A stretch of 64,000 nt of DNA, from IMG/VR virus record IMGVR_UViG_2724679539_000005, positions 12,292 through 76,291 of that record. One strand, 5' to 3'. The notes beneath the pieces were generated by a model. That model ran no database searches. It worked only from the letters and a program-made list of their open reading frames with translations, and was not told the DNA's origin. The first letter of the stretch is position 1, and every line of letters starts with the position of its first letter. Made by a program: the position numbers and the translations under genes. The DNA is from a virus. Lineage: Duplodnaviria > Heunggongvirae > Uroviricota > Caudoviricetes. Below are positions 48,864-62,072 of this stretch, one piece after another.

Positions 48864-49467
48864 CAAGAAAATCAATAACTTAGCTTAACTTCTCTAAGAA
48901 ATTGTATCTTCTGTTATCACTTACAAACGCCTATACGTTGTTATGGGCTTTGGTAGTGTAACACGTATGGGCGAGTAGTTCCCAGGCTCAACCTCGTAAC
49001 AAGTTCCTTTGAAGCTGGAAGACGTGCCACCGTCTCTAAACCTTCTACCAAAACTCTTAGCAAGATGTTCCACACCTGGCGCGGTGTCCAATGATGCTAC
49101 ACGTCGTGAGACGTTGCAGAGGATAAACAGGCTAAATGATGGGAAGAGTTTTAAGTGCAATAGTGGATTAAAGCCCACCTCTTCAAAACCTAACTTGATC
49201 GGGAAAGAATCAAGCTCTAGCACGGTTTCGTCCACCGGAGTACAACGGGTGCCTGATAAGAGAAGAACTGCTAAGACTTCATAGCTTTTGTGAAAAAGCC
49301 CTTTTTAGTGGATACGCCTACGGCGCTTATTTTTTGGTATAACCATCAAAGGCGCTTTATGGCTCCTATTGTCTTGAAAATGTATCTTTACTTGTATTGT
49401 GTTTTATGCGTAGTCTCCCTGTGTAGTATGTAACTTGTTAATTTTCATATGAATACAGAGGCACACG

Positions 49468-49620
49468 ATGAAAAACATTGCAGCTATCAAACGTAATAAC
49501 CGCAAGATTCACGCTCGTAAGTTCCTGTCTACGCCAGAGGGAAAAGCCTGGCTAGAACGTAAACAGCGAGAGAACGAAGAAAGAAAACTCCTTAGTGAGT
49601 TGAAATGGCTTAAGGATTGA
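49468..49620 (+). CDS. hypothetical small basic protein (50 aa)
   Basis: ORF with a GAGG upstream of the ATG; below the track cutoff. Confidence 0.3.
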   Translation: MKNIAAIKRNNRKIHARKFLSTPEGKAWLERKQRENEERKLLSELKWLKD

Positions 49621-50239
49621 ATCACCAGTAGGCGCATAACACATCCAGCGATCAAAGATGTGTTTATGCACCTGATAGTGAAATTATTAAAGTCGTTTAG
49701 TTAACATCGCCATTGCTTGAGCAATAATTGCAACAGCGTCCATCTCTTCACTGGAAGCGATGCAAATGCGGTAACTAATAGCCACAACGAATACATCAAT
49801 AACGAGAAAGTGAATAGTGTGAAGATGTTTTGAAAGTAAATGCATAACTTCCTCCGGTTTGTAGATAGGAGGATTAGAACACGCATTAAATGATGTTGCA
49901 ACAATGGCAATTTACCCTAATAGTCTACTATTCACCTCAATCTACGTCAACCAATATTTGATGTGGATTTAATTTTCTTTTAAAAACAATATGTTGCTAT
50001 TTGTTGGGTTTTGGAGTTAGGTTGTTTTTTGGACGTTTCCATCAAGTGTAAAGATACGTCTAGCCTTCATAGTGAGTTCAGTTACTGTCTTTTTCTCTGA
50101 AATCGGCGCAAACGTGATCATCGCTTGAGGTTGCTGCTCTTACTTCTCAAATTGTGATGGAGAACGATAAAGGTTAGAGGGCACTTTTATTTTTTTAAGC
50201 AAGTGTATAGCATAAGAATAATCTAAAAAGGGAGGTTAT

Positions 50240-50791
50240 ATGCGCAGGTCTGCATTTGTGAGGATGATGATTTTTACAACGTTGTTTGTAGGGGGAGCTT
50301 CTACCGCAGTTGCTAAAAACTGCAAAAAAGGAATACCTTGTGGTAACTCGTGTATAGCTGTTGGTAAGACGTGCCGGATTGGCTCTTATGCCCCTTCATC
50401 TTATAAAAATCATTCATACTCTTATCCTTCATCCTCTATTCGAAGCTCGCAATCAAATAATTCACGAAAAACTGAAGGAGTGAAAACGACTCCTGCTGCC
50501 AAAAATTATCTTTGCCAATACTCTATTGCATCAATCGAAAACGGACGTTTAGGGGCATTACGTGTTCAGGGATACGCACAAGTAACTTTATATGCAGATA
50601 GCTTCAAGGCTAACAGATTAAATGGAACATATTTGATATCGCCAAAACTGTATGCTAACGGCAAGTTTATGATGGCAGATGATAAAAGCAAGGTTTATGC
50701 TTATGATTCTTGGCTATTAAATTTTGCAATAAGCGATCGTATCACAAGAACGACAGAACAATGGGATCGATGTAAGCTCAATCAAAAATAA
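50240..50791 (+). CDS. secreted protein with signal peptide and Cys motif (CKKGIPCGNSCIAVGKTC)
   Basis: N-terminal signal peptide (MRRSAFVRMMIFTTLFVGGASTAVA); GGAGG RBS; Tyr/Ser-rich linker. Confidence 0.55.
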   Translation: MRRSAFVRMMIFTTLFVGGASTAVAKNCKKGIPCGNSCIAVGKTCRIGSYAPSSYKNHSYSYPSSSIRSSQSNNSRKTEGVKTTPAAKNYLCQYSIASIENGRLGALRVQGYAQVTLYADSFKANRLNGTYLISPKLYANGKFMMADDKSKVYAYDSWLLNFAISDRITRTTEQWDRCKLNQK

Positions 50792-51539
50792 CAGTTAGAG
50801 AAGCTCTTGTAGAGGCATTATTGAGTTATTGGTTTTAATATTTTTGTGCCTCTATGGGCTTTTTTTGCCTTTTTGCAATGTAGGAGAGAGCACAGGAATC
50901 GTTAAAATTAATTATTGGGGTATTTAAGGTTATTTTCAGGTGATTTAAGGGTATTAAACTTGATTTAATTGGTTAAAATATAAACAGATAGTTCTGTATC
51001 TTATTGATTTATAAGGTTATTTTTAAATAAAGGTAAATAAAAAATAAATAGCTATAAATACATCTTAATACCTATATCCCTTCCCTTATGGCTAGATTGC
51101 GAGAGGTGCTTAACGCGATTTTCAGCGCCCCCCGATCTGGAAAATCCAGAATCCCCAAATATCAGCAAGGAATTTCTTGCACAATCAACATCGTTTTTAC
51201 CTATTAAATCATTACACAGAAAGCCTTTCTGTAATGCCTCTCACTAAACTTTCACTAAACACGAGAATGATCGGTTTTATGTCGGATCTGATGCTAGAAA
51301 CAGCACCACGTCTCACAAGGGCTGTAAGCGATGAAACCAGTGTTTATGCGGGTGCGGGTCAAAATATAGGCCAAAATCCATTTAACATAATAATCGTAAT
51401 ATGCACTAAGGAACACATAGAACGCCTTGAATTGATGTATCAGGGGAAAAGTGATGGATTTTTTACGTAGGAGCACGAGAGGGCTTCTGTTGACTTTTGT
51501 ATGTTATGAAATATAATTAAAGGTTTTTTTGTTTTTATC

Positions 51540-60532: not shown

Positions 60533-60613
60533 CCGTAAACGCCTCTAAAACGCTCTGTAACGATGTAATTATAAAAGAGGCTACCAATCTATGTTGAAGC
60601 CTCTTTATTGCGT

Positions 60614-61978
60614 CTATGGCGTTGTTTTACGCCTTAAATTTGATTTTTTATTGATTGATAAGCCTTTCTCTATTTCAGGGTAGCGTAGAAGCTCAATATA
60701 TTTTTTAAGCTCTACTGGAGAAGCTGCATTCTTGCTATATGTGCGGAATGTCTCTGTATTGCCGCGTGTATGGCCCAGGAGAAGGGCGATCCTGTCTTCT
60801 GGAATTTGATTTCGATCAAGAAGCTGTGCTACTCCGTGTCTCAGAGAATGAAACACTTTCCTTTCTGTTCCCTTTTCCCCTAAAGCCTTTCGTTTAGCTC
60901 TTGTAAATCTCTGCGTGTGCCACGTGGAACGTTTACCATCAGCACGCTCTGTAATGCTGGCGTGATAGAACAAAAAGCCATTATGAGGCTTTTCACGCAG
61001 CGACAACACCAACGGAGTGATAAGGCTATGTACAGGCACAACACGCGCCGCAGCTTTCGTTTTTCCCTGTGTGATTTCAAAACACAGCACACCTTCGATC
61101 TCTTTCACATCGTCTATTGTGAGACTTGCTATCTCATTGATCCGCATACCTGTATAAGCACCGATAAGACACAAAGCCATCATTTCTTTGTTTTCTGCTG
61201 AATTACCGGAAAATACTTGCAACACTTGCAATAGCTCTTTGTTAGAAAATGCCTCATAGCTCTCTCTACTTTGTGCCACATCAAGCCTATGCCCTCGCCA
61301 GGGGGAGAGCGCCCTTTCTGGCGCATCGTGGTAACGTGATGAAGCTAACTCCCATAGCTGGGCCATTGGGCTGATATAATTTGCAATTGATTGTTGTGAA
61401 AGGGTTTTTTGCATGTGTTCAATCCAGCCTGTAACAGTGGTGCGGCTCACATCTTGCAATGCAATATCAGGCTTTTTACGGTAGGAGAGAAACATCTCTA
61501 CCGCTTTTCTTGCCTTAGCTAAAGTGGCTGGCTTCTTCTTCGTGCTGTTAATTGTCAGGTAGATTTCAAGAATTTTAAGCAATGACGGACACGAAGACGC
61601 TGTATCTTGCATTCTGGTAGCTGTTTTGGCGTATTTAGCCTTACTGCGTAACAGTTCCAGCGTGTTCTCTATTGTGCTGTTTACAGGGGCGACACTCTCC
61701 CGTAGACAATGGTATTCATCTGCAATCTGATCACGCTTTCTACGTGCAACACGAAGACTACTTGTGTGCAGACTTCTGACAAACGTCCTTTTTCCTTCAA
61801 AAAAGGGCTGCATATACACAGGCAACGTGATCCTCAAATAGTAGTTACCGTAAGAATCACAGATTATGTATTGGTTAGGCTTGTATCTCATAAAATCTCC
61901 GGCTAAAGTGTCGGAGCGTTTGTAATGTGAAAATTGATTGTGACGCATAGAAAATGATGATTTTTCTATAAGATTCAA
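60614..61978 (-). CDS. tyrosine recombinase/integrase of the 13 kb element; N-terminal extent uncertain
   Basis: C-terminal catalytic motifs (HSLRHGVAQ, LLGH); the track ORF is 454 aa. Confidence 0.85.
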   Translation of the reverse strand: MNLIEKSSFSMRHNQFSHYKRSDTLAGDFMRYKPNQYIICDSYGNYYLRITLPVYMQPFFEGKRTFVRSLHTSSLRVARRKRDQIADEYHCLRESVAPVNSTIENTLELLRSKAKYAKTATRMQDTASSCPSLLKILEIYLTINSTKKKPATLAKARKAVEMFLSYRKKPDIALQDVSRTTVTGWIEHMQKTLSQQSIANYISPMAQLWELASSRYHDAPERALSPWRGHRLDVAQSRESYEAFSNKELLQVLQVFSGNSAENKEMMALCLIGAYTGMRINEIASLTIDDVKEIEGVLCFEITQGKTKAAARVVPVHSLITPLVLSLREKPHNGFLFYHASITERADGKRSTWHTQRFTRAKRKALGEKGTERKVFHSLRHGVAQLLDRNQIPEDRIALLLGHTRGNTETFRTYSKNAASPVELKKYIELLRYPEIEKGLSINKKSNLRRKTTP

Positions 61979-62005
61979 TCAATTAGTAATGGTCGTAGGT
62001 GATGG

Positions 62006-62072
62006 CATTAACACGAGATTAATCGAGTGTTTTACTCCTATTATCGGCACCACTTAAATCAATAAGTTACAC
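62006..62072 (+). other. att copy 3: degenerate thrW 3'-end remnant (TAATG-GTCGTAGGT ... TCCTATTATCGGCACCA)
   Basis: The 17-nt core at 62056-62072 matches the tRNA-Thr 3' end exactly; upstream homology is interrupted by about 35 nt of unrelated sequence. Confidence 0.6.

Follow-up and report, generated by a model that had tools for sequence, protein, structure and literature searches.

A stretch of 64,000 nucleotides from the IMG/VR virus record IMGVR_UViG_2724679539_000005 (positions 12,292 to 76,291; hereafter the window, numbered from its first letter) contains an AT-rich element of about 13 kb, which we consider likely to be an integrative satellite belonging to a new family found across the Enterobacterales, with virulent phi92-like myoviruses as its helpers. 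The predicted helpers are members of the Stephanstirmvirinae (Justusliebigvirus, Phapecoctavirus and relatives), virulent phages of 145-150 kb. The element lacks essential virion and packaging genes, has its own integration and putative replication functions, and is linked to these phages by a 40-nt copy of the boundary of their direct terminal repeat (DTR) and by collinear homologs of their major capsid protein (MCP), of their tape measure protein (TMP) and of their baseplate hub. A first-pass annotation, made from the letters of the window alone, had listed a phage satellite or hijacker of a new type among several possibilities, and this is the alternative that the evidence favours, although the basis given for it, a set of structural-like genes of no recognisable kind, was wrong.

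Structural proteins shared with phi92-like phages

The earlier view that none of the proteins apart from the integrase could be assigned does not survive profile searches with Pfam and PHROG, which identify an MCP, a TMP and a Dit-like protein, and give a weak HTH_36 match for a 236-residue protein. The 345-residue protein (56626-57663, plus strand) is an MCP of the lambda gpE/HK97 fold, with a match to PF03864 (Phage_cap_E) at 4.7e-14 and 52.6 bits (cut-off 22.9) that spans profile positions 14-329 of 329, and a further match to phrog_29; it is 21% identical to the MCP of phage PaulScherrer over its full length (pairwise E 1e-8). The 608-residue protein (57961-59787, plus strand) is a TMP (phrog_16051, 1.4e-54) with 34-36% identity to Stephanstirmvirinae TMPs in a tblastn search of 50,697 phage genomes. 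Its identity to the PaulScherrer TMP is 27% over 474 residues and 55% over the N-terminal 66 residues, with the first approximately 30 residues nearly identical and the first codons the same at the DNA level. The Gly-rich hydrophobic segment of this protein, noted in the first-pass annotation, aligns with the phage TMP and is the usual transmembrane-like segment of such proteins; an integrative replicon with a secreted effector, another possibility named there, has no support. The 237-residue protein (59819-60532, plus strand) is a Dit-like tail-tube initiator or baseplate hub of the BhuB type, matching PF21821 (Dit_like) at 2.6e-29 and 102.3 bits (cut-off 24.2). It shows 58-60% identity to the Stephanstirmvirinae tail tube initiator by tblastn, 60% over 205 residues to phi92 gp135 and 60% to the PaulScherrer tube initiator, its residues 11-34 being nearly equal to phage residues 1-24. 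Two of these proteins already bear the names 'major capsid protein' and 'phage baseplate protein' in PGAP/NCBI annotations of other genomes.

The termini of the TMP carry motifs, MLEIN..K..N.VTF.VDK.SL at the start and LTL..SGQS..GG at the end, that are common to the phage, the window and the Klebsiella element. Such retention of termini, in our interpretation, would be expected if these proteins dock into a tail that is otherwise built by the phage.

Directly upstream of the MCP gene, in the position that the decoration gene holds in phi92-like phages, lies a gene for a 122-residue protein (56239-56607, plus strand), a candidate head decoration protein on the basis of gene order and a C-terminal VFTS motif common to the phage decoration protein. 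It returned no match in BLASTP against the phage equivalent or in Pfam, PHROG and PDB profile searches; the hhalign probability is 1.9%, and its structural model is poor (pLDDT 53), with head decoration proteins as the top but non-significant Foldseek matches (E 0.25-0.6). We regard it as probably a decoration protein.

Between the MCP and the TMP is a gene for a 65-residue protein of the family core (57745-57942, plus strand; dN = 0, dS 0.10-0.22), which occupies the place of the small phage gene that precedes the TMP gene and has no BLASTP similarity to the phage gene at that position. Profile scans do not recognise this protein as a tail assembly chaperone (TAC). In PaulScherrer the order runs decoration protein (130 residues), MCP (333), other genes including those for sheath and tube, TAC (160), a 75-residue protein, TMP (659) and tube initiator (236). 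The order in the element, namely the 122-residue protein, MCP, 65-residue protein, TMP and 237-residue protein, is that of PaulScherrer with all else removed; the TMP of the element is 51 residues shorter than the PaulScherrer one, which would make for slightly shorter tails. Nucleotide comparison with the phage aligns nothing beyond the 5' end of the TMP gene and the hub gene, at about 69% identity, which points to an old kinship with the phage rather than a recent capture.

Scans of both strands with Pfam, PHROG and NCBIfam profiles found no portal, terminase, protease, scaffold, tube, sheath, baseplate wedge, fibre or lysis gene; the absence of terminase, portal, primase and P4-type genes reported in the first-pass annotation is borne out by the same scans. 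That annotation had also said that its proposal would fall if the proteins matched a known phage family at high confidence. Such a match is what we find, and it does not overturn the satellite reading; rather it strengthens it, since the element has no more of the phage module than a small subset that defines assembly.

A copy of the phage terminal-repeat boundary

The other molecular link to phi92 lies in the non-coding part of the element. At 51091-51170 (minus strand) is a copy of the phage terminal-repeat boundary, a putative pac-like site identified by its match to phi92. In a comparison of the non-coding region with the phage collection, 51091-51136 aligned with phi92 318-363 at 44 of 46 positions (95.7%, database E 1e-10), and within this segment 51097-51136 is an exact match to phi92 318-357 (40/40). 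The annotated left DTR of phi92 covers 1-343, the right repeat being identical, and the shared sequence straddles the inner DTR boundary at 343/344, which corresponds to 51110/51111 of the window, with ATCGGGGGGCGCTGAAAATCGCGTTA before the boundary and AGCACCTCTCGCAA after it. Another block, CCCCAAATATC, which ends at 51163, is also conserved.

An alignment of the sites from the elements of E. coli, Klebsiella and a metagenome with those of the phages phi92, Klebsiella phi1_175008 and Citrobacter Tr1 showed the blocks GTGCTTAACG, CCCC and AAATATC to be invariant in all three elements and all three phages, with the spacing GTGCTTAACG-N13-CCCC-N~22-AAATATC, the phages having 27 consecutive identical bases among themselves. 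The 25-mer core of the site is exact in 9 of the 9 E. coli element loci that cover the region. Moreover, 425 of 5426 complete E. coli genomes contain the 86-nt site, which is always chromosomal and unannotated, has at least 95% identity in nearly all of them, and falls within a block of 700 bp with 92.7% identity between two lineages of E. coli, as against only about 71% for their structural genes. From the identity of sequence and its position we infer that the site is a putative mimic of the recognition or cleavage site of the helper terminase, which would make it analogous to the P2 cos site in P4 and to the cos or pac sites of helpers that PICIs carry. BME3, an independent Justusliebigvirus, has a DTR of 342 bp as determined with PhageTerm, a GC content of 37.5% and no lysogeny genes (PMC12210895).

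A GATATTTG(A)GGGG / CCCCTAAATATC motif is additionally seen near both phi92 DTR boundaries, in inverted orientation, some 16-27 nt ahead of the left boundary and some 41-53 nt ahead of the right one (loci L021 and L020), and the element has a single GATATTTG/CCCCTAAATATC-type copy at 51153-51163. This motif may contribute to the signal that the terminase recognises.

A family spread across the Enterobacterales

The first-pass annotation had suggested looking for the same module in other genomes and metagenomes, and it does recur, in Klebsiella, in Serratia, in a metagenome contig and in hundreds of E. coli. Homologs of the MCP, at 37-99% identity, are found only in chromosomes of Enterobacterales, namely those of E. 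coli, E. albertii, Citrobacter, Klebsiella, Raoultella, Enterobacter, Cronobacter, Leclercia, Kluyvera, Dryocola, Sodalis and Serratia. The Klebsiella, Serratia and metagenome contigs share a common plan, with a long region free of open reading frames (ORFs), a variable rep module, the core genes and an integrase on the opposite strand; the orthologs that they share encode, in order, the 135-, 121-, 70- and 122-residue proteins, the MCP, the 65-residue protein and the TMP. The chromosomal sites of the elements differ between genera. Of 5426 complete E. coli genomes, 287 have the structural module with a coverage of at least 80%, and 544 have it in some form. Carriers include APEC O1 (NC_008563, around 301-306 kb) and E. 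coli C6 (NZ_CP195945, 270-283 kb).

The core genes are under strong purifying selection, with ratios of non-synonymous to synonymous substitution (dN/dS) of 0.06-0.12 for the MCP, about 0.10 for the TMP, about 0.07 for the hub and 0.10 for the integrase. Within the family the TMPs are 24-30% identical as against 37-62% for the MCPs; the Klebsiella TMP is 40-42% identical to Stephanstirmvirinae TMPs, and the hub of the window is as close to the phage hub (59.5%) as to that of the other E. coli lineage (58.9%). This pattern fits tail genes that track, or are exchanged with, those of helpers, and a capsid gene that would be inherited vertically.

That other E. coli lineage, represented by strain RM9088 (locus L024, 1409-21010), is a diverged version of the element, likewise located at the tRNA-Thr gene thrW, with amino acid identities to the window copy of 75% for the MCP, 61% for the TMP and 59% for the hub. 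An insertion sequence (IS), IS1, precedes its 122-residue gene, and a P4-like satellite with an integrase, an Icd-like protein and a primase follows it in tandem, so that thrW looks like a satellite hotspot. Members outside E. coli have a second short integrase-family gene (183-205 residues) at the left end (L003/L004 2968-5083; L005 3138-3689; L017 264-845), which is absent from the window copy, and the Klebsiella copies also encode a Dam methylase that the window copy does not have.

Boundaries and genomic setting

The element is a real unit of about 13 kb, with the limits that the first-pass annotation gave it. The block at 48.8-62.1 kb has a GC content of 35-43%, against about 55% in the prophage upstream, and both of the att-core repeats reported earlier are present as direct repeats, GTTCGACTCCTATTATCG at 48840 and GTTTTACTCCTATTATCG at 62029; the repeats themselves cover 48840-48857 and 62029-62046, and the att cores 48840-48864 and 62029-62053. 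The left repeat is the core of attL (48818-48864, plus strand), whose 47 nt duplicate the 3' half of thrW, and the right one (plus strand), recognised by repeat comparison, is the attR core. The thrW origin of attL is evident from its match to the intact thrW of E. coli C6 (L001, 3994-4046), where the gene abuts a copy of the element that is 95% identical and lies between the proA and pao genes; ARAGORN finds no complete tRNA within the window itself. The tyrosine integrase at 60614-61978 (minus strand), likewise as first described, matches Pfam Phage_integrase at 3e-17 and was recovered in the PHROG scan too; it is the only protein of the element that NCBIfam recognises. Counted from the first TTG its ORF has 454 residues, and its ortholog has 425 in PGAP.

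At thrW the element is the middle member of a tandem array. Its upstream neighbour (1-48817) is a temperate myovirus prophage, complete and similar to Citrobacter phage Chris1, that uses the same thrW att site, with 48818-48864 doubling as its attR. The late region of this prophage is 80% identical to Chris1 over 56%, and encodes a terminase (29622-31739), a portal (31960-33471), a protease-capsid fusion (33233-35506), a sheath and a 636-residue TMP. Just outside the attR of the element, 62138-62398 (minus strand) encodes the C-terminal part, 86 residues long, of a different tyrosine integrase (phrog_1, 3e-22), which is probably what is left of a third thrW element. The ORF that follows this fragment, at 63107-64000, matches phrog_3736, to which no function is assigned there.

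Non-coding region, replication module and cargo

The non-coding repeat region of roughly 1.9 kb described in the first-pass annotation corresponds to a stretch of 2-2.6 kb without a credible ORF between 50.8 and 53.4 kb, in the ortholog of which PGAP annotates none. It includes an iteron array at 52010-52172 (plus strand), which we regard as a putative replication origin; in it a 21-nt unit with an internal palindrome, TGGATGTAACGAnAGGTTACA, occurs five times. The equivalent region of the Klebsiella element has a different set of iteron-like repeats. Rfam profiles detected no RNA family in the element. A 46-nt segment at 53146-53191 matches T5-like phages (Klebsiella KPN4, E. coli TrudiRoth and Salmonella Sw2, inside an annotated terminal repeat region) at 85-89%, with stretches of 28-30 nt at 93-97% and E-values of 1e-4 to 0.06; this may reflect a shared strong promoter or chance.

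The run of small plus-strand genes noted earlier is present as well. It includes a regulation and replication module (53438-54806, plus strand) encoding proteins of 58, 73, 236 and 92 residues, which varies from one family member to another. The 73-residue protein has a weak Arc/RHH-like match (Arc-like, 0.025). The 236-residue protein matches HTH_36 at 1.4e-4, weakly and under the Pfam gathering score, and the replication initiation or O-like families phrog_270, phrog_345 and phrog_391 at 1.7e-6 to 3e-5, weak matches that suggest a replication-initiator-like protein.

To the left, at 49468-50791, is a variable cargo region with small ORFs at 49468-49620 (plus strand) and 49687-49845 (minus strand) and a gene for a 183-residue protein at 50240-50791 (plus strand), all with identical calls by PGAP. 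The 183-residue protein has a signal peptide and a Cys-rich N-terminus, belongs to PHROG 2578/14768, to which no function is attached, and matches no PADLOC defence model; its gene is absent from the RM9088 lineage.

Promoter, leader and small core proteins

Downstream of the replication module two overlapping genes (54939-55686, plus strand) encode family-core proteins of 135 and 121 residues, with orthologs in the Klebsiella, metagenome and Serratia elements and dN/dS of 0.04-0.26 (0.04-0.09 for the 135-residue protein alone). Neither has a Pfam, PHROG, PDB or PADLOC match, and the AlphaFold model of the 135-residue protein is uninformative (pLDDT 56). A sigma70-like promoter follows at 55716-55744 (plus strand; TTGACA-17-TAATAT with TG), and downstream of it are six plus-strand genes at 56030-60532, as the first-pass annotation described, the first of them encoding a 70-residue protein conserved in the family core (56030-56242, plus strand). 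The promoter does not, however, abut these genes directly: between them, within 55716-55975 (plus strand), is a structured leader or non-coding RNA of about 220 nt (55745-55970) with an intrinsic terminator at about 55936-55968. The fold of the window leader has a z-score of -5.6 against shuffled controls. Four family members have the same layout, in which a strong sigma70-like promoter right after the 121-residue gene is followed by a non-coding leader of about 250-650 nt, a terminator and the operon (in relatives, L003 8845-9408, L005 8795-9360 and L017 4787-5521). This arrangement suggests that the late operon may be controlled by anti-termination, or that the leader may act as a regulatory RNA; PLE, a satellite of Vibrio cholerae, possesses a regulatory small RNA, SviR (PMC11838301). 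A further intrinsic terminator lies after the capsid gene (57673-57697, plus strand).

Proposed life cycle and alternative explanations

Taken as a satellite of phi92-like phages, the element would be placed at thrW by its tyrosine integrase, which is observed there together with the att cores. Upon infection by a helper it would excise and replicate from the iteron origin by means of the Rep-like protein. On the model of SaPIbov5 Ccm and the cfPICIs, its own capsid protein and probable decoration protein could then form a small shell of the right size for 13 kb, either by themselves or by co-assembly; its TMP and hub, with termini matching those of the phage, would replace the phage proteins and give rise to chimeric tails like those of the Vibrio PLE. 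The copy of the DTR boundary, given its identity and position, may let the phage terminase recognise and cut satellite concatemers. The diversion of capsid, tail and packaging functions would probably reduce helper yield and so act as a defence at the level of the population.

Several points weigh against this reading. Induction, excision, replication, capsid resizing, chimeric tails, terminase cutting, transfer and interference are all predicted steps, and no excisionase, repressor or helper-sensing gene was recognised in the element. The MCP is 21-23% identical to phi92-like MCPs and scores equally well against those of Pseudomonas PAK_P1-like phages, so that its compatibility with the portal and scaffold of the helper is conjectural, and the basis for the decoration protein is weak. 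The hub gene was seen only in the two E. coli lineages examined. As for the packaging signal, the element has a single boundary-like site, with no second one for the outer DTR boundary; the site motif is missing from the Serratia member, and the literature searched holds no experimental test of the function of the conserved phage DTR-boundary site. Finally, no virome-derived or circular 13-kb contig was found, every IMG/VR match being a prophage called in the genome of an isolate, and the collection of 50,697 phage genomes does not contain the element.

Some of these points would suit a fixed anti-phage defence island, in which the capsid, TMP and hub copies serve as dominant-negative poison subunits and the site as a terminase decoy, with no packaging. 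Homologous termini of the TMP and hub would permit their entry into phage tails, the site copy could titrate or misdirect the terminase, and the IMG/VR matches gave no sign of packaging; interference of satellites with tail assembly is documented (PMC11838301; Tai systems, PMC11364771). We nevertheless consider such an island unlikely. The integrase, att sites, iteron array and Rep-like gene are all kept and the sites differ by genus, and this retained integration and origin apparatus, together with the varied chromosomal sites, argues for mobility. A complete MCP with a probable decoration partner, under strong purifying selection, exceeds the needs of a decoy, and PADLOC models gave no match. 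Defence is in any case compatible with a satellite lifestyle, and the two are not mutually exclusive. A temperate helper, either the adjacent 48-kb prophage or another resident one, with the phi92-like genes as ancient acquisitions, seems to us quite improbable. It would be the usual situation, in that most known enterobacterial satellites (P4, PICI, cfPICI) use temperate helpers, and the prophage that shares the att site of the element, arranged in tandem with it, is a complete temperate myovirus. Against this, the MCP and TMP of the element have no similarity to the proteins of that neighbour, which we rejected as helper on this ground, and the element occurs alone at thrW in E. coli C6 and beside a P4-like element in RM9088. 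The exact 40-nt site and the TMP and hub homology point instead to the Stephanstirmvirinae, and the temperate lambdoid and P2-like phages that match the neighbour are not among the matches listed for the non-coding region of the element.

The presence of the structural module only in fragments and the IS insertions in some copies might also be read as decay, the element being the remnant of a once-complete phi92-related prophage and its genes the chance survivors of deletion. This is very improbable in view of the minimal gene set and order kept from E. coli to Serratia, the intact ORFs with dN/dS of 0.04-0.12, and an exact boundary site in hundreds of genomes, which is unlike neutral decay; moreover, lysogeny genes are absent from phi92-like phages, which are virulent (PMC12210895). 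The first-pass annotation had further entertained a miniature virus-like element. An autonomous miniature tailed virus would account for the element having its own capsid, TMP and hub genes, integrase and probable origin, but is scarcely credible for an element in which portal, terminase, tube and sheath are among the genes missing from both strands. Tailed-phage assembly is impossible without genes of this type.

Implications

If the family does function as proposed, a dedicated parasite of phages of the phi92/Phapecoctavirus type would reside in about 5-10% of E. coli strains and in many strains of Klebsiella, Enterobacter and Citrobacter, which could explain strain-specific failures of such phages and open a new route of transduction. 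It would also bring chimeric tails and satellite capsid homologs, two principles discovered recently, together in one compact, genetically tractable E. coli system, and point to the sequence that phi92-like terminases use in making terminal repeats. A fuller scenario, which we put forward tentatively because the case for it seems to us slightly weaker than the case against, is that the virions are doubly chimeric. In these, a shell made of, or given a new shape by, the satellite's own capsid and decoration proteins would sit on a helper portal and be joined to helper tails re-cored by the satellite TMP and hub, with packaging by the helper terminase through the copied site and control by the conserved RNA switch of promoter, leader and terminator. 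The satellite would be both a transducing vehicle and a strain-specific barrier to the phi92/Phapecoctavirus phages of therapy cocktails, and its family the first to exploit strictly lytic phages in E. coli, Klebsiella and their relatives. To our knowledge, satellites of virulent phages are mainly those of Vibrio (PLE, PICMI), and none has been described for the large lytic coliphages that are at present being collected and put to therapeutic use. In the full-text literature searched, outside which most subscription journals lie, no paper links satellites to phi92, Stephanstirmvirinae or Phapecoctavirus, and none concerns an int-MCP-TMP element at thrW.

Relationship to known satellites

Judged by its genes and sites, the element does not show the defining features of the P4-like, PICI, cfPICI or PLE families. 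It resembles P4-like satellites as an integrative element of 11-13 kb at an E. coli tRNA gene with a copy of a helper packaging site (putative here), but differs in having its own MCP and TMP and in lacking Sid, Psu, Delta and the alpha primase-helicase, for which there are no matches; its site copy matches Stephanstirmvirinae and not P2, and its predicted helper is a virulent myovirus of 145-150 kb instead of P2. Nor does it have the classical PICI layout (int-stl/str-alpA-pri/rep, terS/ppi/rpp), as there are no AlpA, TerS, Ppi or Rpp matches. A parallel for its capsid gene is nonetheless found in a PICI, since SaPIbov5 encodes Ccm, which is 24% identical to the helper capsid protein and redirects assembly to small T=4 capsids (PMC8569155). 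In both cases a satellite carries an HK97-fold capsid protein with about 21-24% identity to that of the helper; SaPIbov5 differs as a Gram-positive PICI with a temperate siphovirus helper, a cos site and no tail genes, and in the element a probable decoration protein accompanies the MCP. The cfPICIs, too, are enterobacterial integrative satellites with their own HK97-type capsid protein. Unlike the element, they have a whole head module (portal, protease, connectors and small terminase) and steal only tails; here the capsid-forming module consists of the MCP and the probable decoration protein, and tail-core genes are encoded as well.

PLEs are set apart in their descriptions by a V. cholerae host, ICP1 as helper and core genes for a serine recombinase, RepA and TcaP, among others, which distinguishes them from the element, whose host belongs to Escherichia/Enterobacterales. 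They use a large serine recombinase, whereas the element has a tyrosine integrase at a tRNA gene, and it also differs in host order, in helper subfamily and in having no recognisable tail assembly chaperone. PLE uses the ICP1 coat with an external scaffold, TcaP (PMC10002752); the element, by contrast, encodes its own MCP in place of a scaffold of the TcaP type. The likeness lies in the tail. PLE is a satellite of the lytic myovirus ICP1, and all PLEs encode their own TMP and chaperone (TAC), some of them BhuB as well; their tail proteins are 19-41% identical to those of ICP1, and PLE virions bear chimeric tails in which PLE proteins replace those of the phage (PMC11838301, a 2025 preprint). 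The ICP1 structural genes are annotated as rV5-like, and ICP1 gp78 matches Dit_like (1.2e-17) and PHROG 1517, the families of the 237-residue hub, a link that runs through the shared Pfam and PHROG families only, direct BLASTP between the two being not significant. As in PLE, then, a small integrative island with a large virulent myovirus of the rV5/ICP1-type structural module as its apparent helper has a TMP and a Dit-like hub of its own that are homologous to those of the helper (19-41% identity in PLE; 27-60% in the element), together with a helper-like sequence related to packaging.

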